Source of the DNA: Oscillospiraceae bacterium
GTDB lineage: Bacteria; Bacillota; Clostridia; Oscillospirales; Oscillospiraceae
Assembly: GCA_045546715.1 (NCBI GenBank)
Contig: JAZQDI010000015.1
Coordinates: 1 to 56,413 of the forward strand
Length of the DNA stretch: 56,413 bases
Direction: 5' to 3'
Shown: positions 3,448 through 15,260 of the stretch, in pieces
How the letters are laid out: each line of letters opens with the position of its first letter
Position numbering within the stretch: position 1 is the first letter of the stretch
Position numbers and translations under genes: made by a program
Notes under the pieces: generated by a model
Told to the model about the DNA's origin: nothing
What the model saw: only the letters and a program-made list of their open reading frames with translations
The model's database searches: none

Positions 3448-3813
3448 GGGGATGTACCGGTTTCGACGGGGGTGTGGAGGCAGGAATAGCGGGCGGCGGC
3501 GCCTGACCGCCATAAAACGGGCATCTTATAAATTAAAGAACAACAACGATACTGTTCTTCTCGCTGCTTAATTAGCGAGCGTTCCCTCCGGGAGGCCCAC
3601 GGCCCGGATGTGGAGCGTCGATTAGTGGGGAACGTGAGTGCGCAAAGCTTTGAGTGTGCCACGCATCATGAAGCTACCGGACTTTCAGGCTTGCATGTTG
3701 GCCTGGTATGAAGGGAACGGGTAAGTTCGGCTTACCGCAACAACCTGCTGCGCCCGGAGAAGTTCCTGTTAAAGCGCTTTCGGACGGGGGTTCAATTCCC
3801 CCCATCTCCACCA
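3448..3813 (+). ncRNA. ssrA: Transfer-messenger RNA (tmRNA, SsrA)
   Basis: The 5' end is GGGGATGTACCGGTTTCGACGGGGG. The 3' tRNA-like end is GGACGGGGGTTCAATTCCCCCCATCTCCACCA. An internal tag frame ends ...DTVLLAA-TAA (stop at 3569..3571). It is adjacent to smpB. Confidence 0.95.
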
Positions 3814-5052: not shown

Positions 5053-7971
5053 TCAGCCGCGGGAACGGCGACGCGATTTGGTCTTCAGTGTGATGAATCC
5101 AACAAGCGTAATCGCAGCGAAGAGTCCAAGCAGGAGCTCGGGTCCACGACCTGCAACAACACCTGTGACAGGGATGCTGTCAAGAACATTCTGAACCTCA
5201 ACAGTCAAATCTTCATTCAGCGTGAAATCCTGCGGATTTCCTTCCTCTTCATTCATCATCACAGTGTAATTTGAAGGAACATTCGTTTCGTTGATGGTAA
5301 CCGTCACGCCCATCGGCAGGTTCTCCAGCGTCTTTGTACCATTATCGCCCAGTGAGAATGTCTGTGCGTCAATCGACAGCGCAGGATGTCTGAAGGTAAC
5401 TTCAAACTCAAAGGTGCGGCTCTTGTTGGCAAACAAGCCATCCACATGTTTATTGACTGTCAGAGACAGTGTATCAACATGCACGACAAATGTCTCAGAA
5501 GCTGTGGTTGCAGTATGACTTGAATCGGCATCGCAGGATCGTTTGATCTTGCCCTCGCTGAAGAGCAGACCCGTCATATCTTTTCCGCCCACCGCGATGG
5601 AAACAGAAACCGGGAAATCGCTTGTCACAGCAACATACTCGGTATCATTCGCTTTCACGGTAGAATTCGTCTCTTTCGGCTTCTGCGTGATGCCGAGAGA
5701 TGGCTCGTTGCCCTCCATTACAGCAGGATCTGCAACCTTGTCGCCGCATTTCCAAACGATATCGGTCGGACGAGGATACGTAATGTCTTCACCATAATAC
5801 TTCGACTGATCTTTGAACGTCATCTCAGGCTTATAGATGAAGATGTTCATGGCAACGGCTACTTCCTTTTTATTGGAAGCATCCGCAATGTCCTGAACAC
5901 AGGAAGACAACGTATACTTATTGCCGGTCAGGTCGGGCTGAGTGTCGCCGATCCATGACCAGCTGCCACTAGTTGCGCCATGCTCCACAGTGTAAGTGCC
6001 GAGAACATTGCCATTCTCATCCTTCAATGTGAAGGAAACATCCACATTGGCGTTGTTCACACCATCAAACAGCTCGCTGAAAGAAGCGGTTTGGGCGCTC
6101 GTTCCTTCACCAATGGTAAAGCTGGTGGAACCCGTGATCAAACCGCTGACAACATTCGCGTCCTGCGTAAGGTAGACATGCTTGTCGTCCATCTTCGGCG
6201 TGACTGCCTTCAACGGGACGTTCACATCCGGAACATCATACAGCTTGACAGGCTCAGTGGCGCTTGCATTCTCATACAAGCCGGAATCCGCACCGTTGGT
6301 CTTTGTCTCACTGCCGCCCAGATAAAGCGGCTTCACAGGAACTGTGAACGTGATGACAAGCTTTTCACCACGAGGCGTTTTGGAGCCATCCGTCTGCGTC
6401 GTATAACCGACCCAGTTCTCACTGTAGTTAAAGCCGGTCACATGAAGCTTGTTGCCATCGGTGGTGGCATTGACGCCGCTTGCATCCTGCAAGGGACCCC
6501 AGCCGTCTTCGCCCTTGAAGGCAGATGTCTTCAATTCGACGCCTGTAGCGCCTTCGGGAAGCGTGAAGTACGGAGTGACAATGTCATTCACAACGGAATC
6601 ACCGGTGAGCGTAACGGAAGAACCGCCAATTTCCTGAGCGATGCTCTGAAAAATACTGTCAAGCGCTTCCGGACTGTCCACGACTGTATAATAAGTCTGT
6701 CCTTCCTTCAGGTTCGGATTTTTGTCTCCCAGCACAGCAGGAGTCGTATTACTATTCCCGTTTGCGGTAGCATTCGGATAATTGGAAGAAACACTGTTCA
6801 GGAACGTGTCAATCGCAGTACCCGTTGCATCCGGATTGCCGGTAGCATAGCTAATCGTAGCAACAGAATAAACCGTAGCGCCGGAATTGTTCTTCAATTC
6901 ATACGCAGCAGCTGTCGCTTTATTGGCATATCTCCAACCAGACTTGAACTCCAGAGGGTCTCCTGGCGGCTTAAGGTTATCCGGCGCACCGTCAGTAAAC
7001 ATGATTACAGCAGAGGGACGGCTTGTGTCGGAACGAGCTGCAAGAATGTTCCTTGCCATTACCATACCCTCATCGGTTTTGGTACCATCCGCGCCATACT
7101 TGTCCATCACAGAAACAGCATCGTAGGAGTCGCCTGTTTTGGTATAGTAATCAATCGGCTTCATAGCATTTGCAGCATCCAGATGGTTGGGAGTGACAGT
7201 CTCCGTGTTCGTAACATAGAGCGCAGAGCCGCGGAACTGAACAATAGCTACTCGGCTATCAGGATTATCAGCCTTGATTTTATCAAGGAAATTGTTTACA
7301 GCCGACTTAAGTGCTTCCAATCTTGTTCCATCGCCAAAAGATTGATCCATTGAAGTAGAAAGGTCAAGAACCAGAACAACATCAACAGGAACCGTTTCCT
7401 CGCTAATGATAGAAGAACCGGTAACATAGCTTTCCAGCTTAATCTCGACATTCTTGCCATCAGCGCTCAGAGTCGCAGTCTTGTCCAGCACAACAGGTGG
7501 TGTCGGAGTCGGTTCCGCTCTCAGCGCAGGAGCCTTCATCATCATCTTCTTGGCAGCAGGTACAGCCTGACGGATGATCGGTCCAACCTTAGTCAGGTTT
7601 GGCAGTGTGGGAACATAGGCAGTCTGCGCTTCTTCCTCAGGCACGCTTTCGTCAGGGACAGTCGCGGTGGACTCCTCAGTGGGTTCTTCCGCGTCAACCG
7701 CAATTTCGGCTTCCTGCAGGTCTTCCGCCTCATCTGCAGTTTCGACTTCCTGCACATCTTCCGTTTCAGCGGCTTCTTCAATCTGGACAACGTCCGCACT
7801 TTCGGCATCCAGAACTTCCAGATCAGTGTCTTCCTGATGCAGAATCGCAGCTTCTTCCATCAACTGCTCTTCCAATGTGGGCATTTCGCCGGCCGCAATC
7901 AGGCCAAGCGCCATAATCACGACAAGCAGGGCAGCAAGGAAACGACGCTGCCGATTATTCAGTTTACGCAT
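5053..7971 (-). CDS. Pilus tip adhesin with vWFA domain and cell-wall sorting signal
   Basis: It has a signal peptide and an acidic N-terminal repeat region. MIDAS motifs are present (VLVLDLSTSMD and MFTDGAPD). The C-terminal sorting signal is IPVTG plus a hydrophobic segment plus KSRRRSRG. Confidence 0.8.
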   Translation of the reverse strand: MRKLNNRQRRFLAALLVVIMALGLIAAGEMPTLEEQLMEEAAILHQEDTDLEVLDAESADVVQIEEAAETEDVQEVETADEAEDLQEAEIAVDAEEPTEESTATVPDESVPEEEAQTAYVPTLPNLTKVGPIIRQAVPAAKKMMMKAPALRAEPTPTPPVVLDKTATLSADGKNVEIKLESYVTGSSIISEETVPVDVVLVLDLSTSMDQSFGDGTRLEALKSAVNNFLDKIKADNPDSRVAIVQFRGSALYVTNTETVTPNHLDAANAMKPIDYYTKTGDSYDAVSVMDKYGADGTKTDEGMVMARNILAARSDTSRPSAVIMFTDGAPDNLKPPGDPLEFKSGWRYANKATAAAYELKNNSGATVYSVATISYATGNPDATGTAIDTFLNSVSSNYPNATANGNSNTTPAVLGDKNPNLKEGQTYYTVVDSPEALDSIFQSIAQEIGGSSVTLTGDSVVNDIVTPYFTLPEGATGVELKTSAFKGEDGWGPLQDASGVNATTDGNKLHVTGFNYSENWVGYTTQTDGSKTPRGEKLVITFTVPVKPLYLGGSETKTNGADSGLYENASATEPVKLYDVPDVNVPLKAVTPKMDDKHVYLTQDANVVSGLITGSTSFTIGEGTSAQTASFSELFDGVNNANVDVSFTLKDENGNVLGTYTVEHGATSGSWSWIGDTQPDLTGNKYTLSSCVQDIADASNKKEVAVAMNIFIYKPEMTFKDQSKYYGEDITYPRPTDIVWKCGDKVADPAVMEGNEPSLGITQKPKETNSTVKANDTEYVAVTSDFPVSVSIAVGGKDMTGLLFSEGKIKRSCDADSSHTATTASETFVVHVDTLSLTVNKHVDGLFANKSRTFEFEVTFRHPALSIDAQTFSLGDNGTKTLENLPMGVTVTINETNVPSNYTVMMNEEEGNPQDFTLNEDLTVEVQNVLDSIPVTGVVAGRGPELLLGLFAAITLVGFITLKTKSRRRSRG

Positions 7972-8716
7972 CGTTCTCGCTCCCTTCCTTATTCTTCTTT
8001 ATCGAAACGAACGCCGCAGTCGCAGTCATGCCGCTCAGCAGCATGAGAGAAACAACCAGAGGCACGTTTCTGTCATCGCCCGTCTTAGCAATGCCGGGCT
8101 TAGGGGTCGGCGTCGGCGCCGGCGTCGGAGTCGGCGTCGGAGTCGGGGTTGGTGTCGGCGGCGGGGTTACCGGACCGACATATACAGTGTTGAACTCCAC
8201 CTCATTGGGTTTTACATCCTGATCGTCTTCGGCGGTGAGCATTTTGAGCTTCAGCCCTTCGCCTTCGTCGTTCGCAATGTAAAATGTGACGGTGGTGGAA
8301 CGCTTCTCAAACGTGTAGCGATCCGCGTCCTTCTTCAAGTTGTCTTGATCCAAATCGGCCATGAGTTCATAAGCGTATACACCGGGTTTAGAAAAGGTGA
8401 ACGTCAGCACGCCGTTCAAGTCGAACTTGGTGTTGTCTCCGTCCTTTTCACCGGTTCCCACAACGCCCTGGAAGGAAAAGCCGCCTTTTTCGTCTGCCTC
8501 TGCGGGCAGCGGCGCGCCGTCCTTCCCGGATACGATATAGTGGAACTCGCTGTCCACTGATGTATCCGTAGTGATGAACACATGCTTATACTCCAGCTTG
8601 ACCTCCAGCGGCTCATATTCCGCAGCGCAGGCAATCATGCCGACGCTGAGCAGAGACGCCAGAATCGCCAGAACGCAAAGCACAGTCAGCACTTTGGTGT
8701 GTCGGTTTCGAATCAT
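7964..8716 (-). CDS. Basal (minor) pilin with polyproline tail and sorting signal
   Basis: It has a signal peptide and a tail [27 protein letters not shown] preceding IAKTG plus a TM segment plus a basic tail. This architecture resembles FctB/RrgC-type base pilins. Confidence 0.65.
   Translation of the reverse strand: MIRNRHTKVLTVLCVLAILASLLSVGMIACAAEYEPLEVKLEYKHVFITTDTSVDSEFHYIVSGKDGAPLPAEADEKGGFSFQGVVGTGEKDGDNTKFDLNGVLTFTFSKPGVYAYELMADLDQDNLKKDADRYTFEKRSTTVTFYIANDEGEGLKLKMLTAEDDQDVKPNEVEFNTVYVGPVTPPPTPTPTPTPTPTPAPTPTPKPGIAKTGDDRNVPLVVSLMLLSGMTATAAFVSIKKNKEGSENDA
8100..8170. repeat. Pro/Thr-encoding microsatellite-like repeat inside the basal pilin gene
   Basis: Iterated ggcgtcgg/ggagtcgg units encode (PT)n. 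Confidence 0.8.
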
Positions 8717-8722
8717 GGTAAT

Positions 8723-9643
8723 TTACTTCCTTTTTCTCTCAGGCCTGTTCCGGCCCGAAATTGTCCGGATCACGATCCATAGCAGTAATACAAATACTAC
8801 AGCAACGCTGATCCACAGCCACAGCGGCAATCCCAGAAATCTTTCCGCCTGACTAATCAGGCCAGTACCGCGATTGACTCGCGGCGCCTCCTCTTCCGGG
8901 AGGAAAGTCTCGTCCGTCAGCTTTCCGATCAGCATATACCGACCGTTGGTAATGGTACTGGTACAGGTGGAAAGCTGAATAATCTGATCCTCTGTCGTAA
9001 CGGGAATGTCCCGTCGAAAAATGGCAGTAGAATCAATCAGATCAAGGAAAGCCTGCCGATGCGCAGGATCAGTTGCCGGAGCAAACAGAGTTTCATCATA
9101 CGCATCAGTGAGCACCAAAGCAAAGAATTGAATGCCGTGATCCTTCCCCATGAAGAACAAATTTCCGTATGGGTGGGAATCAAAATATTCCTGCTCAGCA
9201 AAGTCACTGAGACTGCCGAACATTCGCTTCTTTTCCATATGGTGACCATAGATAACGCTGTTGAAATCGTCAAACGCAGGGCTGTTTCTGTAATCCAGAA
9301 AAATGGAGCCGGATAACGTGTAAGCGCCCTCGGCGTTGGTGTTAATGTACTTTTCATTGTCTCCCGCCTGAGCCATCGGGTAATCAATCGGCGTATCGAT
9401 CACCGTTAACCAAGCAAAGACATCGGGATTGAGTCTCCGAAGCTCATCGAAGCTAACTGTGTCTTCCGCTGAGGGACGATATGCGGCATAGCGGGCCGCG
9501 TCCGCCTGCTGATATACCTGATTGGAGTCCCAGAGGGAGTACGCGCCAAAGAGCAGCATAACGCACAGAACGATTTCGATTGCAATATCCGTTACCCGAT
9601 CAATGGCTCTGACGGCTTGGATGCCAAATCGTTCAAGCGTCAT
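8723..9643 (-). CDS. srtB: Class B sortase (pilus polymerase type)
   Basis: The SrtB signature is present: DTPIDYPMAQAGDNEKYINTN...GSIFLDYRN...VIYGHHM...MFGSL...QLSTCTS. There are N- and C-terminal TM segments. Confidence 0.85.
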   Translation of the reverse strand: MTLERFGIQAVRAIDRVTDIAIEIVLCVMLLFGAYSLWDSNQVYQQADAARYAAYRPSAEDTVSFDELRRLNPDVFAWLTVIDTPIDYPMAQAGDNEKYINTNAEGAYTLSGSIFLDYRNSPAFDDFNSVIYGHHMEKKRMFGSLSDFAEQEYFDSHPYGNLFFMGKDHGIQFFALVLTDAYDETLFAPATDPAHRQAFLDLIDSTAIFRRDIPVTTEDQIIQLSTCTSTITNGRYMLIGKLTDETFLPEEEAPRVNRGTGLISQAERFLGLPLWLWISVAVVFVLLLWIVIRTISGRNRPERKRK

Positions 9644-9759
9644 AAGTCATCTCTTCTCGCTTCTGACCGGTACGACCAATCCGGCCGGAGAGCACTTTCA
9701 TCTGGTTTGGATCGCCCGGTCTGCCCGAAAGACACGGGCAGACCGAATGATCAGGAAGT

Positions 9760-10842
9760 TCAGGCGTTATAAGCCTTCTTCTTGAGAGCGAGATAAGCAA
9801 CACCAGCTACGGCCACAAGGACGAGCAGCACGTAGGGCAGATTGTCAATGATCACACCAGTGGGGACGAGGTCATCGCGCTGGTTGTCGATTGAGACCGC
9901 TTCCTTCTTTACGATGGGGCCATTACCGGCAACATCAGTACGGTCACCAGCAACATAAGCGGTATCCTCAGTCTTAACAGAACCGGTAATCATGCTCTTA
10001 TACTCGCTGGCCTGCTTCTCGCTCACGGTGAAGGTGGTACCAGCAGGCAGCTTCTTGAACTCGATCTTTCCGCCATCGGCAAGATTCGCCGTGACGGTCG
10101 CGGTGGTATCGCTGGTCCAGGTGACCGTGGCGCCCTCAGCAACGACAACATCATCCTTGCTGGCAACCTTCGCGCTAGGAATCTCAATTTTCACAGTAAC
10201 AGGGAAGGTCTTCTCCTTGTTGCCGTAAGTACCGGAGATCGTCTTCGTGACGGTCAGCGCATCATCGACGACTTCCTTCAGAGTGTTCTCAAACAGGAAC
10301 TCGCTCTTCTGGTGCGTCGGGGTCTCGGTCGGGTCAACCTTAGCGCCGTTCTTTTCAACGGTCAGACCGTCAAAAGCCAGCTTGCCGTCAGCACCATTAA
10401 TCACGTATACACGCAGCGTGTAAGAACTCTGGTCCATAGTGAGAACCGCATTGTTCGCAGCAGGAGCGGCAGGAGTATCCTGTTTCTCCGTCACGGTCCA
10501 GGAATACTCACCAGCATGGCTGAACATGCCAATCGTGATAAAATCACCGAGGCAGATCGCGCCGGTAGCAAGATCATTTTCCTGCGCACCGACAGTGACA
10601 GTCTGATTCGCGATTGCAGGGCTGTCAGCGCCTTCGGAGTCCTTCAAAGAAGCAAACTCAAACACGAACTGATTCACAGTGCTGATATCAACACCGTCCG
10701 CCACATTCAGATCCTTCCGGAGGAAGGAAACATCCAGTCCATAAGTTTCAGCCTTGTCCGGTTCATCCGCGTAGGCAGAAAAAACGCCCAGCGCAAATAC
10801 GAGAACGAGAACCAAAAGAATACTAGTAATTCTCTTACTCAT
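9760..10842 (-). CDS. Major pilin (backbone subunit) with LVPTG sorting signal
   Basis: It has a signal peptide, a Thr/Val-rich beta-type sequence, and a C-terminal DDLVPTG plus TM plus KKKAYNA. It lies between the SipA-like gene and the sortase, as in FCT-type loci. Confidence 0.7.
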   Translation of the reverse strand: MSKRITSILLVLVLVFALGVFSAYADEPDKAETYGLDVSFLRKDLNVADGVDISTVNQFVFEFASLKDSEGADSPAIANQTVTVGAQENDLATGAICLGDFITIGMFSHAGEYSWTVTEKQDTPAAPAANNAVLTMDQSSYTLRVYVINGADGKLAFDGLTVEKNGAKVDPTETPTHQKSEFLFENTLKEVVDDALTVTKTISGTYGNKEKTFPVTVKIEIPSAKVASKDDVVVAEGATVTWTSDTTATVTANLADGGKIEFKKLPAGTTFTVSEKQASEYKSMITGSVKTEDTAYVAGDRTDVAGNGPIVKKEAVSIDNQRDDLVPTGVIIDNLPYVLLVLVAVAGVAYLALKKKAYNA

Positions 10843-10930
10843 TTTTCTTCTTTCCTTTCATCAAATAATAGGGTAATTTATAATCAAGCCGCGCATGGTC
10901 GTTTTGCGGCAGCTCAATTAACAAAAAATG

Positions 10931-11494
10931 TTATAAATTTCGGCGGCGAAATAAGCCAATCACCTTGCCGTCAATATCATTTTCATCAACACAGCCAAAC
11001 ACCCGGCTGTCAATCGCGTTTGGTCGATTATCCCCAAGCAGGAATACTTGTCCGGGGGGAACCGTCAGCGGAAATGTCACCTGGTTTTCAAACTGTGTGG
11101 TTTCGCCAAGCACTTCGGGTTCAACGATAACAGAACCGTTTATCTCGAGACCTTTGTCTGTTATATCAACGCTGTCTCCGGCCGTAGCTATGACTCGCTG
11201 CGGAAGCTTACGACCTTCATAAGTCACAACAACCATCTGATCAGATTGATAAGATTGAACAATGCGATAGTAAAACAGTAAATCTCCATCCTGAACTGCA
11301 GGCTGCATGTTCAGGCTCTGATTGCGGGCAAGACCAAAGATATATGAAAAAATCAGGACCGCAAGCAGACCAATCACTGCGAACTTCAGAAGGAGCATCA
11401 TCAGACTGCCGAAGAAGCTTGGCTTCCTACGTTTTGATTTTTGATCCATTGTTTGATCCGTCTGACTCACCTCTCCAAGCATATTTCCAAACAC
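10931..11494 (-). CDS. Signal peptidase I homolog lacking catalytic Ser/Lys (SipA/LepA-like pilus assembly factor)
   Basis: The S26 fold signature LLGDNRPNAIDSRVFG is present. The SM(x)PT box reads NMQPAV and the K-R-(V/I)-IG box reads QRVIATAGD. It is the first gene of the pilus operon. Confidence 0.7.
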   Translation of the reverse strand: MFGNMLGEVSQTDQTMDQKSKRRKPSFFGSLMMLLLKFAVIGLLAVLIFSYIFGLARNQSLNMQPAVQDGDLLFYYRIVQSYQSDQMVVVTYEGRKLPQRVIATAGDSVDITDKGLEINGSVIVEPEVLGETTQFENQVTFPLTVPPGQVFLLGDNRPNAIDSRVFGCVDENDIDGKVIGLFRRRNL

Positions 11495-11783
11495 AGAATA
11501 TACACATTTTATTTCTGATTAAGCGCTATGATCAATCACACTGATTAATTACCACTTTTAGTATAGCAAAGAAAAATCAACGTGTAAAGTTTGTTATGTT
11601 GACTAAATCCGTTATTTTGATAAAAAACATGATATTATTATAGAACAGACACAAAATGTAGTATCTTTTCATATTTTGTGATTATTTGTCATTTCATTGA
11701 ATCAGAGCGAAATATCTATCTTTTTACGATTTAATTTGATATGATTAAAAAGAAAATAGGATAACTGCGGAAAGGCAAAATGC
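11495..11783. promoter_or_regulatory. Very AT-rich divergent intergenic/promoter region
   Basis: About 290 bp, visibly far more AT-rich than anything else in the window. It separates the minus-strand pilus operon from the plus-strand HD/deaminase operon. A TTGACT element and several TATAAT-like elements are present. Confidence 0.5.
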
Positions 11784-12779
11784 ATGGACTTATTCATACC
11801 ATATCTAACGCAAATACCGGATTATTTGAAGAATGCCGCAGCAGCGCCGGAGATGCTGCGGCTGCGGGACGTCGGAATGAACTGCGGATGTGAATATACA
11901 TCGTTTCCGCGCTTTCAGAGACTTGCGCCATATTCCCGATTCGATCACAGTCTCGGTGTGGCGCTGATCGTCTGGCACTTCACGCAGGACCCCGCGCAGA
12001 CCCTCGCCGGACTGCTGCACGATATTGCGACTCCTGTTTTTGCTCATGTAATAGACTTTCTGAAAGGTGACTACATGGAACAAGAGGCCACCGAGGTCGG
12101 CACCGCAGAAATCATTGCCGCCTCCCCTGCCCTGCGCACTGTGCTGCGTGATCTAGGCCTGTCAGTCGAGGATGTATGCGACTATCACCGCTACCCAATC
12201 GCAGATAATCATGCGCCAAAACTTGCCGCTGATCGTTTGGAATACACACTTGGCAACTGTGTAAACTATCAAATCCGAACACCAGAGCGCGCGCTACAGT
12301 ACTATCGTGATCTGGTCGTCTCACAGAACGAGGACGGAGCCCCGGAGCTGGCATTTCAAAGCCGACACCTTGCTGAAGATTTCGCGTTTGCTGCGCTTTC
12401 CTGTTCCGAAATCTATGTCGCAGATGAGGATCGCTGGGCCATGCAGGAGCTTGCGGAACTGCTGCGTAATGCAATAGGCATCGGAGTCATTGCAGAGCGT
12501 GATTTCTTCACGACAGAGTCGGAAGTGATTGAAAAGCTGCTGAAGTCTCAATTGACCGAAGCTCGATGGAAATCTTTCCGCGCCATGAAAATGATAGAGC
12601 GAAGCGAGACGCCGAAAGATGATAGCTGGAAGATGATTCGCGCTAAGAAGCGGCGGATTGACCCCCTGATCGCAGGATACGGCAGAGTGAGCGAATACTC
12701 ACAGAAGTTCTCTGAAAAGCTTTCGGAATTTGAGAATCGAAGTCAGGATTACTGGATTCGAGCCAGAGCACGGAGGTAA
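11784..12779 (+). CDS. HD-domain phosphohydrolase (COG1078/SAMHD1-like family)
   Basis: HD metal-binding motifs are SRFDHSLGV (His about 11945) and LLHDIATP (HD at 12016..12021). The protein is 331 aa. Confidence 0.75.
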   Translation: MDLFIPYLTQIPDYLKNAAAAPEMLRLRDVGMNCGCEYTSFPRFQRLAPYSRFDHSLGVALIVWHFTQDPAQTLAGLLHDIATPVFAHVIDFLKGDYMEQEATEVGTAEIIAASPALRTVLRDLGLSVEDVCDYHRYPIADNHAPKLAADRLEYTLGNCVNYQIRTPERALQYYRDLVVSQNEDGAPELAFQSRHLAEDFAFAALSCSEIYVADEDRWAMQELAELLRNAIGIGVIAERDFFTTESEVIEKLLKSQLTEARWKSFRAMKMIERSETPKDDSWKMIRAKKRRIDPLIAGYGRVSEYSQKFSEKLSEFENRSQDYWIRARARR

Positions 12780-12783
12780 GTAC

Positions 12784-15225
12784 ATGACACAATTTGGTCA
12801 ATTCTGGTTGGACAAGGAAAAGGATATTGTGACAGAGCTGTATCGTGACGGCGAAACCCTGCATTATATCCTTCGCACACCGCACCATAACTCCGGCAAT
12901 CTCATTACCAATCTTGCGAAGCTCTGTGACCTCCCGCTCTCTGAGGACGAAAACGGACTCAAGGTAATCCGCGGCGAGATTCCCTGCTATGTCGACGGCG
13001 AAAACCGGAAGCTTTGGATCTTCCGCATGGGCAACACCAAAATCGCAAACATTTGGCCGGACGGCAGCGTGGAGATGAAGGCCTCTGTTCCCTCCATTTC
13101 CAAGGTGCTCATGAGTCAGACGAGAGACTATCAGCTGAGCGAAGCAAAAACTATCGTCAAAACTTATATTTTTAGCGACTGCAAATTTCACTCAGACCTG
13201 CACACGCACATGAGCGCAAATCTCGTGCCGGAGATTCTCATTGCACTCGGCATTCGGCATCAAATCCGCTATCCCCTTTATTACATCAAGAAGCTTCGTC
13301 TGCGCGTGACGCCGGAGCAGGAAAAGCAGCTGCTGGCTGACCGAGAAAAGGTGGCGAAGCAGTTTGTCGGCTCTCCGCTCACCGGAAAATACAGAGACCG
13401 AAAAATCGATGATCAATGCTTTCTGAATTTTGCGGAGCTGATTCTGAACAATCCTGCAGATGCGGAATACAACATCTCGAGAATCCGCATTTCTCTCGCC
13501 ATTCCGAAAGACGGGCAGGCCGTGTTTGCAGATCTGGAAAAAGTCTATCTTTATCGCTATGTGTTCACCAAGGGCGTACCCTCCGAACGGCAAATCACGC
13601 TGACCGACGACTTTTCGATCCCGAATCAGGAGGTTGCCGAGGCGCTGCATCAGATGCTGCAAGATTGCAATCATCCGGACTACTGCAGCAACACACTGTT
13701 TCAGAACAAGCTTCTCTGGATTGCACGATCGTACGCTCAAAATGGGATTTCCTACGCAGAGATTTCCGACACCGCGCTGTGCAAGTCCGGAGACGCTCCT
13801 CGTGTTCTGCAGGAAATTCACAAGGTAATGCCTGCGGTGACGCGGGAGACCGGCGTCACGCTCCGATTTCTCGCCGCAATCCGGCGCACGCCGCTGACCA
13901 TTGTGCGCGATCATGTGACGCCAAACGACTATCTGGCGGATAACTTGCGCACACTTCGCGCCGTGGCGGCCGACCCCTATGTTGCAGGAAGCGACATTGT
14001 GGGCGAGGAAATCAACGACATTTCGGAGCTGAAAAGCGTCATCCGAGAGCTCGTAAAAATCGCTGCCGAGGAACCTGACTTCGTCATACGGATTCATGCA
14101 GGTGAAAATGACAGTCTGCGAGACAATGTTGCGGAGAGCATTCGATGTGTTCGGGATGCGCTTGCGCCGGGACAGACCATGCCAAGGCTTCGCATCGGGC
14201 ACGGTCTGTACACGACAAATCTGCACTCCCCCGCCGGCACCCGTCTGCTGCGCGAAATCCGAGAGCAGCAAGTGGTACTTGAGTTTCAGATCACTTCCAA
14301 TGTACGGCTGAACAATCTCAGTGATCTCCGGCGTCATCCTCTGCGCGACTATCTTCACGCGGGCATTTTCTGCGTGCAGGGCACGGACGGCGGCGCCCTC
14401 TATGGAACGAATCCGATTGATGAACAGCTGAGTCTTGAAAAACTGCTTGGACTTACACATGCTGAATTGCTGCAAATGCGAAAAGCGGAGGACGCTATTA
14501 TAGCGAAAAGTCTGAGTGTATTTCATCGAAAGATTGCATCGTTTGCGAAAAACTGTTCCGAGAGTGTGGAATCATACTACCAGACTCAGATACAGAAAAC
14601 CGATCCGATTCAATCTGATTTATGGCTGAATGCCGGCAAACTAAAGTCCGCTGAAATCCTGAAAGCTCAAATTGAGCCGCTTCCTGACGAGGGTATTCCT
14701 GTTATCATTGCAGGCGGCAGCTTCAGCGGAGACCGCCGGACCGGGAAGCTCACAGAAGAAGGCAAGGAATTGATCGATCGACTGCTCGACCGCGCCGATC
14801 ATGAGCGCGTGTTCTTCGTCGTCGGCCATCGGATGAGCGGATACGAACGTTATCTTGTCGAGCAGAATCAGGGAAGATTTCTGATATACGCATTCGTCCC
14901 GACTGCACTCACGGCTTCTGAGTGTGACCGTCTGCAGCGAAGCGGCGTGAGAATCCGCCTGTCCATCGAAGCAAGCGGAAACGGTGTGTACAAAAGCTTC
15001 GCTTATGAGATTTTCAAGCGGCGAGACTCGGTTCTCATCGCCTTTGATGGAAAAAGCCCTGCCGCAAACCTCGTGCAGGAGGCGAAAAACGGCAGAGCAA
15101 AATGCAGGATTCTGATCAACGGACGCTCCCGCGCGCTGCGCGCAAAGGCCAGAGCCCTGGAGGGATACGTCACATTTCTGGAAAATCTGAGCGACCCGGC
15201 AGAAACAATTCTGAGCTGCATATAA
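12784..15225 (+). CDS. Multidomain adenosine/AMP-deaminase-fold protein (unknown N-domain + ADA-like amidohydrolase + C-terminal Rossmann/SLOG-like domain)
   Basis: Deaminase motifs appear in order: DLHTHM (13195..13212), IRIHAGEN (HAGE at 14095..14106), IGHG (14194..14205), FQITSN, and VQGTDGG (14379..14393). GGAGG lies 7 nt before ATG 12784, and the gap from the HD stop is 4 nt. The C-terminal 175 aa have alternating strand/helix patterns with Gly-rich loops: VIIAGGSFSG, FFVVGHRMSG, LIAFDGKSPAANLVQEA. Confidence 0.7.
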   Translation: MTQFGQFWLDKEKDIVTELYRDGETLHYILRTPHHNSGNLITNLAKLCDLPLSEDENGLKVIRGEIPCYVDGENRKLWIFRMGNTKIANIWPDGSVEMKASVPSISKVLMSQTRDYQLSEAKTIVKTYIFSDCKFHSDLHTHMSANLVPEILIALGIRHQIRYPLYYIKKLRLRVTPEQEKQLLADREKVAKQFVGSPLTGKYRDRKIDDQCFLNFAELILNNPADAEYNISRIRISLAIPKDGQAVFADLEKVYLYRYVFTKGVPSERQITLTDDFSIPNQEVAEALHQMLQDCNHPDYCSNTLFQNKLLWIARSYAQNGISYAEISDTALCKSGDAPRVLQEIHKVMPAVTRETGVTLRFLAAIRRTPLTIVRDHVTPNDYLADNLRTLRAVAADPYVAGSDIVGEEINDISELKSVIRELVKIAAEEPDFVIRIHAGENDSLRDNVAESIRCVRDALAPGQTMPRLRIGHGLYTTNLHSPAGTRLLREIREQQVVLEFQITSNVRLNNLSDLRRHPLRDYLHAGIFCVQGTDGGALYGTNPIDEQLSLEKLLGLTHAELLQMRKAEDAIIAKSLSVFHRKIASFAKNCSESVESYYQTQIQKTDPIQSDLWLNAGKLKSAEILKAQIEPLPDEGIPVIIAGGSFSGDRRTGKLTEEGKELIDRLLDRADHERVFFVVGHRMSGYERYLVEQNQGRFLIYAFVPTALTASECDRLQRSGVRIRLSIEASGNGVYKSFAYEIFKRRDSVLIAFDGKSPAANLVQEAKNGRAKCRILINGRSRALRAKARALEGYVTFLENLSDPAETILSCI

Positions 15226-15231
15226 AAGAGA

Positions 15232-15260
15232 ATACGCTTACCAATTGGTAAGCGTTTTCT
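15232..15260. terminator. Bidirectional terminator
   Basis: acgcttacc-aatt-ggtaagcgt followed by TTTTC. It lies between convergent genes. Confidence 0.7.

Follow-up and report, generated by a model that had tools for sequence, protein, structure and literature searches.

A three-domain adenosine deaminase-fold protein and its HD-domain neighbour in an Oscillospiraceae bacterium

The window considered here, namely the whole 56,413-nucleotide (nt) stretch at positions 1 to 56,413 of contig JAZQDI010000015.1 (Oscillospiraceae bacterium, assembly GCA_045546715.1), encodes an HD-domain protein of 331 amino acids (aa), followed directly by an 813-aa protein built around an adenosine deaminase (ADA)-fold core. 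A sequence-only reading had presented these two genes as a defence-like module acting on nucleotides, with a purine-salvage pair as the alternative. Comparison with homologous loci indicates that the pair is very probably not a conserved module. The HD and deaminase genes are best read as members of two independent, widespread and vertically inherited chromosomal families of gut and rumen Firmicutes, with the HD gene representing an unrelated neighbour, adjacent to and co-transcribed with the deaminase gene only in the narrow lineage of the window. The overall explanation which is favoured, at about even confidence, combines these two independent families with a role for the large protein as a regulated purine deaminase in purine homeostasis.

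Conservation and genomic context of the gene pair

A scan of species-representative genomes yielded eighty loci with 10-kb flanks, at 56-72 % ADA identity. In none of these eighty species loci did tblastn, even at E <= 10, detect an HD homologue in the 10 kb to either side of the ADA homologue. Among 127 loci, tblastn showed adjacency of the pair in only two close relatives (76 % and 83 % ADA identity; loci L087 and L088), both of which also keep the pilin/S26 gene order, with the pilus block before the pair. The HD gene is not found beside the deaminase gene in a relative with 81 % ADA identity, while the HD and ADA genes on contig JAFRPG010000009 (GCA_017429265) are separated by ~46 kb. The HD homologues adjoin PheRS/RsmB-type methyltransferase or flavodoxin/sigma-factor genes, with no deaminase encoded nearby. 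The proposed two-gene defence-like module does not hold, as the adjacency is restricted to the nearest relatives, with no HD gene beside the ADA homologue in ~80 other species, and the alternative of a conserved purine-salvage pair is likewise not supported as a pair. Each of the two families is large and is found separately among housekeeping genes.

The large gene is a chromosomal gene which stands on its own. When the open reading frames (ORFs) up to 6 kb away from it were clustered across 85 loci, no neighbour was present in more than eleven loci, and a Pfam census of the 133 immediate neighbours distinguished 110 families, none occurring in more than four proteins. The neighbour types are mostly housekeeping, including peptidoglycan enzymes, GGDEF, pyruvate kinase and FemAB, and ArgRS, SHMT, GAPDH, MgtE, DnaB and ribosomal protein L9 are encoded in the wider context of the ADA homologues. 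The most frequent neighbours (~10-11 of 85 loci) are an MgtE gene and a downstream gene coding for a ~500-aa protein (an arginyl-tRNA synthetase in L001), a recurrence which is probably a remnant of the gene order common to related species and not the sign of a functional link. All locus pairs with at least 95 % ADA identity share two or more neighbours, with this proportion dropping to 50 % at 85-95 % identity, 25 % at 75-85 %, 7 % at 68-75 % and ~1 % below this. Such a smooth decay in gene order is as expected for a chromosomal gene which is passed on vertically while the genomes around it rearrange. No copies of the deaminase family were found in the IMG/VR viral contigs (two scans), PLSDB plasmids, INPHARED phages or PHROGs.

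PADLOC analysis (library of 2023) of the 133 immediate neighbours gave six isolated model matches at E <= 1e-10. The large protein matched only CARF_ADA (8.4e-9), at model positions 338-572, which represent the ADA part, and the ADA portion of this model was likewise all that was matched when both window proteins and ten distant relatives were considered together. The window proteins matched neither RdrB nor RdrA, no cas genes are present in the window neighbourhood or among the 133 neighbours, and the Kongming partners HAM1 and SIR2 do not occur among the Pfam-identified flanking genes or the recurrent neighbour families. The absence of RdrA, CARF, HAM1 and SIR2 partners, as remarked in the sequence-only reading, thus agrees with the PADLOC and Pfam results for the flanks. 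The mobile-looking setting and defence-like role which it put forward are not borne out, with no integrase, no defence enrichment and no phage, plasmid or viral copies in evidence. The neighbour, mobility and gene-order data give no sign that the gene forms part of a defence island or the cargo of a mobile element. It also falls outside RADAR (no RdrA or RdrB, with HD and coenzyme A (CoA)-disulfide reductase-rhodanese genes as neighbours), Cad1 (no CARF, no cas genes and an N-terminal domain without a fold match) and, as judged from the neighbour genes, Kongming (without HAM1 or SIR2). A defence role, for which no support was obtained, is unlikely for the large gene.

Domain architecture of the two proteins

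The architecture of the large protein, comprising an N-terminal domain, an ADA barrel and a C-terminal SLOG domain, is new and the family is unstudied; no description of an ADA-SLOG fusion was found within the part of the literature searched. More than 5578 homologues exist, the best 120 of which are full length and share 66-99 % identity (typically 66-72 %), and grouping at 90 % identity still leaves more than 5,500 clusters in the family. Clustering at 50 % identity reduces the tight family to three full-length representatives. The contigs carrying the homologues are labelled as Oscillospiraceae/Ruminococcaceae, Lachnospiraceae, Christensenellales, Erysipelotrichaceae/Solobacterium and others (the taxonomic labels of metagenome-assembled genomes (MAGs) being possibly imprecise), with one homologue derived from the cultured isolate Lachnospiraceae bacterium FE2018. 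In public records, the homologues are labelled 'adenosine deaminase'.

The sole Pfam match of the large protein is to A_deaminase (PF00962; residues 314-567, E 9.7e-17, with 61.5 bits where the cut-off is 27) and, with this score and the full metal and catalytic set, it belongs to the adenosine/AMP deaminase superfamily. The motifs D138-L-H140-T-H142, H438-A-G-E441, G472-H473-G474, T504-S505-N506 and T534-D535-G536 could be distinguished, and D138, H140, H142, H438-A-G-E441, G472-H473, S505-N506 and D535-G536 are invariant in 26 relatives down to ~22 % identity. In these aligned relatives the second Asp of the classical SDD motif is always Gly (TDG). The family profile matched classical bacterial and Plasmodium ADAs in the PDB at 1e-19 to 1e-15 and Cad1 at 5e-3, with RdrB absent from the family-profile PDB matches. 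The best single-sequence PDB match is 3ou8, deposited as an adenosine deaminase, which we take to be P. aeruginosa PA0148, characterised as an adenine deaminase. The fold, HxH, HAGE and GHG motifs and metal-binding Asp are shared with the classical adenosine and adenine deaminases (PF00962; 6n9m, 6n91, 2pgf and 3ou8). However, the large protein comprises 813 aa as opposed to ~330-370 aa, incorporates the additional N-terminal and SLOG domains, and has a post-HxH segment which is ~100 aa longer (298 aa between HxH and HAGE, compared to ~200 in classical ADA). From HxH to the rest of the barrel there are ~208 aa in the window protein, compared to 126-159 aa in the distant branch of the superfamily described below. 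All scores against the NCBIfam Add equivalogs (TIGR01430, PRK09358) are far below the cut-off (48.7 bits against 216.55), and by score and by its TDG in place of the SDD motif, with the second substrate-binding Asp, the protein is not a classical Add. Its sequence sets it apart from ordinary adenosine deaminases, and none of its close relatives has been characterised.

As the metal site, catalytic Glu and catalytic His are intact, the large protein should be catalytically active as a deaminase. Alignment to the best PDB match shows Ser-Ala after HxH where classical ADA has Asp/Glu-Gly. The Asp at this position in classical ADA contacts the ribose 5'-OH, while AMP deaminases have Ser-Ala there. 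The Ser-Ala pair thus leans towards a phosphorylated substrate, which is probably an adenine nucleotide and not plain adenosine.

There is no Pfam match to the C-terminal ~180 aa of the window protein, including to the SLOG models, and comparison of the domain profile against the PDB gave only BAG6, which was judged to be spurious. Structure was therefore needed to establish its identity. Modelled on its own with AlphaFold2 (AF2), the domain is Rossmannoid (pLDDT 89.4, pTM 0.87), and its Foldseek matches in the PDB are all SLOG proteins (probability 1.0, TMq 0.5-0.58). These include the TRPM4/8/2 N-terminal domain, DprA, the Moco carrier protein, LOG, YgdH/PpnN and ShosA, with ATP-bound TRPM4 and ADP-ribose (ADPR)-bound TRPM2 structures among them. 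Conserved loops follow beta1 (AGGS), beta2 (GHxxSGYE), beta3 (VP) and beta4 (DGxSPxxNLxQEA), with AGGS, GxxxxGxE and DG/GGG as conserved loop patterns in the alignment, and in the model these strand-end loops would form the usual SLOG ligand crevice. Both the fold match and the conserved Gly-rich loops place the domain in the SLOG superfamily (SMF/DprA-LOG). By sequence, its closest clade appears to be the TRPM type (LSDAT; PF18171/PF18139). The window domain does not match LSDAT_prok, but sub-threshold matches occur in seven of 17 relatives (best 2e-4), relatives also show weak Pfam matches to LSDAT_euk, and TRPM-like motifs (TGGTNxGVEK and GGGxVVRDxIQ) are carried by relatives. No Pfam Lysine_decarbox/LOG match was obtained for the domain, and K737 and E766 are invariant in the tight family but not in the superfamily as a whole. 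In type I Thoeris, the SLOG domain of ThsA binds 3'cADPR. The fold of the C-terminal domain of the large protein is common to the TRPM2/4/8 N-terminal domain and the ThsA SLOG domain, and the TRPM-type motifs are alike in the relatives, but SLOG is fused to a deaminase in the large protein, to an ion channel in TRPM and to a SIR2 NADase in ThsA.

The N-terminal domain is specific to this family and very highly conserved (in a diverse alignment, the column identity averages 62 %). Modelled on its own with AF2, it consists mostly of beta-strands with two helices (pLDDT 89.2, pTM 0.80). Its ~135 aa have no Pfam match, its profile has no match in the PDB, and Foldseek comparison gave nothing significant (best E 0.15 and TM 0.27 in the PDB; best E 0.22 in BFVD). 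The top Foldseek matches include type III secretion chaperones at TM ~0.27-0.30, and these were not accepted as relatives. When 150 representatives were searched with a hidden Markov model of the domain, the three full-length members of the family and one other long protein (P0274) were recovered. On the strength of the model, the N-terminal domain may represent a new fold.

The wider superfamily consists of 700-1,000-aa proteins with an ADA core and SLOG domain at 23-30 % identity, in combination with other N-termini. Contigs encoding one distant family (P0295; loci L093, L094, L095-L126), which is taxonomically broader than that of the window, are labelled as Alphaproteobacteria, Ignavibacteriales, Clostridia and Bacilli. 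One of the contexts of this branch includes recombinases, one an N6/N4 DNA methyltransferase and one a 619-aa NUDIX protein, while a PGDYG-domain protein and a ~150-aa protein each recur in seven of 33 metagenomic loci. The 1016-aa P0298 from an Ignavibacteriales MAG incorporates, in addition to ADA-SLOG, a C-terminal nucleoside 2-deoxyribosyltransferase-like domain (PF15891, 1.5e-5). The distant branch may be conflict-related, perhaps representing an undescribed conflict system, and the window family appears to have arisen from the same ADA-SLOG architecture and to have become fixed in the chromosome.

The HD protein matches Pfam HD over residues 52-135 (2.6e-5), with an invariant metal tetrad consisting of H55, H79-D80 and D150 (in D-R-L-E-Y). 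More than 2702 homologues exist, which are mostly 55-61 % identical and carry the JGI label 'HD superfamily phosphohydrolase'. Comparison of the family profile against the PDB gave Aquifex 2hek (2.6e-5) and, marginally, SAMHD1 (~0.2). As these are its sole structural relatives by sequence, it can loosely be placed as a short phosphohydrolase in the COG1078/SAMHD1 lineage. The H...HD...D metal set and the RF[DE]HSLGV and LLHD motifs are held in common with the SAMHD1/COG1078-type phosphohydrolases, which have D-x-x-D-Y where the HD protein has D-R-L-E-Y. It is, however, much shorter than the deoxynucleoside triphosphate (dNTP) triphosphohydrolases, the similarity is weak, and its context is housekeeping. 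Neither PADLOC, which includes defence dGTPase models, nor PHROG matches were found.

The domain calls made in the sequence-only reading are largely in accordance with these results. Pfam recovers the HD domain, all of the ADA motifs described are present (including TDG and the long insertion, with a spacing estimated at ~300 aa), the N-terminal domain without recognisable motif is equally without Pfam, profile or fold match, and the Rossmann-like C-terminal domain, for which SLOG/LOG had been suspected, is of the SLOG superfamily.

Features of the locus and flanking genes

The features of the locus are summarised in Table 1. The large gene consists of 814 codons including the stop. A TTG at position 12730, taken as the start in a mechanical ORF list, was rejected in favour of the ATG at 12784, since a GGAGG Shine-Dalgarno sequence is located 7 nt 5' of the latter and more than 100 full-length homologues begin there. 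The stop codon of the HD gene (TAA, 12777-12779) lies directly 3' of this Shine-Dalgarno sequence. With only 4 nt between the two genes and the Shine-Dalgarno sequence abutting the HD stop, the two genes are almost certainly co-transcribed in the window, and no terminator was found between them. The promoter region presumably sits in the AT-rich spacer upstream of the HD gene, in which promoter-like matches occur on the minus strand only and no Rfam element was found. The GC content is 0.42 in 11001-12000 compared to ~0.55 on average in the window, and 0.515-0.526 over the two genes. The hairpin downstream of the pair is likely a bidirectional terminator, shared between the deaminase gene and the CoA-disulfide-reductase-rhodanese gene. 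No riboswitch was identified by Rfam upstream of the deaminase gene in the window and sixteen homologous loci. A ZMP/ZTP riboswitch was observed in L034 (1414-1524, minus strand; 39.6 bits against a threshold of 39), ~0.9 kb upstream of the deaminase homologue and on the opposite strand, where it presumably regulates a different gene.

Table 1. Coordinates of features in and around the gene pair
Feature	Position	Strand	Basis
tmRNA gene	3448-3813	+	Rfam, 146.6 bits, full-length model
Sortase-pilus operon	5053-11494	-	Pfam-identified genes
AT-rich divergent intergenic spacer, between S26 peptidase gene (-) and HD gene (+)	11495-11783		Sequence read
HD-domain phosphohydrolase gene, 331 aa	11784-12779	+	ORF, Pfam HD
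Shine-Dalgarno GGAGG of deaminase gene	12772-12776	+	Sequence read
Three-domain protein gene (N-terminal domain, ADA barrel, SLOG), 813 aa	12784-15225	+	ORF, Pfam, homologues
N-terminal domain, aa 1-133	12784-13182	+	AF2 model, family-specific conservation
ADA-fold (amidohydrolase TIM-barrel) core, aa 134-590	13183-14553	+	Pfam/NCBIfam, invariant residues
HxH	13195-13209	+	ADA motif
HAGE	14095-14106	+	ADA motif
GHG	14197-14205	+	ADA motif
TDG	14383-14391	+	ADA motif
C-terminal SLOG-superfamily domain, aa ~631-813	14674-15222	+	AF2 model, Foldseek
Hairpin, perfect 9-bp stem, T-rich runs on both strands	15234-15255		Between convergent genes
CoA-disulfide-reductase-like pyridine-nucleotide-disulfide oxidoreductase gene, fused to rhodanese domain, 602 aa	15277-17309	-	

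The tmRNA gene was missed by ARAGORN, the output of which listed neither tRNAs nor a tmRNA for the entire window. It is followed by a CitMHS-type (citrate-type) transporter gene and, between it and the pair, the sortase-pilus operon, which encodes a 972-aa VWA/DUF5979 tip adhesin, a 250-aa protein, a class C-like sortase, an FctA/DUF7601 pilin and an S26 signal-peptidase-like protein. The Pfam-identified flanking genes between the tmRNA gene and the pair include neither an integrase nor a restriction-modification gene. Located 3' of the pair are the gene for the fusion of CoA-disulfide reductase and rhodanese and those for an AlaX-like protein and a molybdopterin oxidoreductase. A separate 112-aa ORF, rhodanese-like by eye, is situated just upstream of the 602-aa oxidoreductase gene and overlaps its start. 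As initially described from the sequence, the locus thus includes the 4-nt gap, the AT-rich upstream spacer, the downstream terminator, the tmRNA gene and the pilus locus. The size given for the HD protein (331 aa) stands, while that of the large protein is 813 aa rather than 814, and the lower GC content is real but modest, with similar dips elsewhere in the window.

Proposed function of the deaminase and alternative explanations

In the favoured reading, the ADA barrel would hydrolytically deaminate adenine, probably in the form of a phosphorylated nucleotide, while the TRPM-type SLOG domain would bind a nucleotide-derived ligand and tune the deaminase allosterically, and the N-terminal domain would mediate assembly or further input. 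Ligand sensing is proposed because of the role of this fold in TRPM2, TRPM4 and ThsA, and by this analogy SLOG may tentatively be viewed, at slightly less than even odds, as an allosteric sensor controlling the deaminase. The protein would then contribute to adenylate or purine-pool homeostasis, with a logic like that of eukaryotic AMP deaminase or bacterial AMP nucleosidase, and such a homeostatic role, rather than phage defence, is most likely.

Several points weigh against this reading. The loci compared were fetched by exact peptide patterns, with a resulting bias in favour of closer relatives, and the neighbour genes were called by a simple longest-ORF rule. The Shine-Dalgarno sequence abutting the HD stop argues for real co-expression of the two genes in the window lineage. 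Neither a riboswitch (Rfam) nor a purine-metabolism neighbour (133-neighbour census) points to a pathway, and with TDG replacing SDD, so that the second substrate-binding Asp is Gly, the substrate is uncertain. The contexts of the P0295 branch are variable and rich in hypothetical genes, with recombinases in some, so that a conflict origin or role is possible for the window family. By analogy, moreover, a sensor joined to an ADA effector would be the exact layout of the defence protein Cad1, and in Thoeris it is through a SLOG domain that the effector ThsA senses its signal.

Cad1 is a CARF-adenosine deaminase of type III CRISPR (PMC11645235; PDB 9ebt, 9ubl). A nucleotide-sensor domain fused to an ADA-fold effector is common to both proteins, of which the ADA parts match weakly. 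However, the sensor of the large protein would be a C-terminal SLOG domain while that of Cad1 is an N-terminal CARF domain, and the large protein has no CRISPR or cyclase context, belonging to a chromosomal, conserved and solitary family. The RADAR protein RdrB is a ~90 kDa ADA-fold protein with an N-terminal extension and an insertion which splits the catalytic core (PMC9994260). The large protein has all of these in common with RdrB, but has neither a PADLOC or profile match to it nor an RdrA AAA+ partner, and carries SLOG in place of RdrB insertion 3.

These likenesses provide the case for a stand-alone abortive-infection effector, in which SLOG would sense a phage-induced signal and ATP/dATP would be converted to ITP/dITP as by Cad1 and RdrB, with the HD protein possibly adding dNTP depletion. 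The sensor and ADA effector layout, the weak CARF_ADA (8.4e-9) and Cad1 structure (5e-3) matches and the RdrB-like size, extension and insertion are all consistent with such an effector, as are the recombinase, DNA methyltransferase and NUDIX genes near distant ADA-SLOG relatives and the position of the pair downstream of a tmRNA gene. Nevertheless, it is improbable, as there is no signal-generating partner or recurrent neighbour, the neighbours are housekeeping genes with only isolated PADLOC matches among the 133, and RdrB and dGTPase models are not matched. The decay in gene order fits vertical descent, the conservation is very high, unlike that of fast-evolving and patchy defence genes, and the family is absent from the phage, plasmid and viral collections, with no integrase beside the tmRNA gene. 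A chromosomally fixed, single-protein and ligand-gated adenylate deaminase switch is somewhat less improbable, although still unlikely. Here SLOG would sense an endogenous or infection-induced nucleotide (ADP-ribose, an isomer of cyclic ADP-ribose (cADPR), (p)ppGpp or ATP) and thereby trigger conversion of ATP/AMP to ITP/IMP, resulting in growth arrest or a reset of the energy charge. If true, this switch would be a bacterial counterpart of Cad1 and ThsA which is assembled from other components and has an N-terminal fold not seen before, and a free-standing enzymatic relative of the animal TRPM ligand-binding module.

Two metabolic alternatives are rated as doubtful to the same degree. A LOG/PpnN-type SLOG domain could free adenine, possibly N6-substituted, from AMP-like nucleotides for the ADA barrel to convert to hypoxanthine, which would make the large protein a bifunctional catabolic enzyme. 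The LOG/PpnN signature consists of a PGGxGTxxE motif and a catalytic Arg/Glu pair. The invariant K737 and E766 lie near what we take to be the positions of the LOG Arg/Glu motifs, but this candidate Lys/Glu pair is not conserved in the wider ADA-SLOG superfamily. Catalytic LOG (1ydh, 5zbj) and YgdH/PpnN (9us2) are included among the Foldseek matches and the best single-sequence PDB match, 3ou8, is presumably an adenine deaminase, while Pfam Lysine_decarbox/LOG is not matched and the closest clade by sequence appears to be of the TRPM type, the studied members of which bind rather than cleave their ligands. The other possibility is a true metabolic operon in the window lineage, with the HD protein dephosphorylating (d)NTPs or (d)NMPs and the deaminase taking the products or the remaining pool. 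Both proteins are plausibly nucleotide-acting, and the 4-nt gap, the abutting Shine-Dalgarno sequence, the lack of a terminator between the genes and the retention of the arrangement at 76 % and 83 % ADA identity point in this direction. The kinds of organism which carry the two families are the same, and a single contig of GCA_017429265 has both, but the adjacency is missing elsewhere, including in the 81 % relative, and neither family has purine-pathway neighbours. That the large protein is no more than a housekeeping adenosine deaminase (Add), with inert additions, is very unlikely. The naming of the homologues in public records and the classical bacterial and Plasmodium ADAs as best PDB matches of the profile are in line with this view, but the NCBIfam Add score (48.7 against 216.55 bits), the TDG replacing SDD, the HxH-to-HAGE spacing (298 against ~200 aa) and the high conservation of the two extra domains, with 62 % mean column identity in the N-terminal domain, all argue against it.

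The proposal of a defence pair is thus largely refuted, and a false lead is removed. What emerges is a very large family of gut and rumen Firmicutes, simply labelled 'adenosine deaminase', with an unstudied architecture, and the distant ADA-SLOG branch may be a conflict-system relative from which this family derives. Should the deaminase be gated by SLOG, the family would reveal how the adenylate pool is controlled in abundant anaerobes, and would offer a soluble and tractable system in which to study how TRPM-type SLOG domains recognise their ligands.

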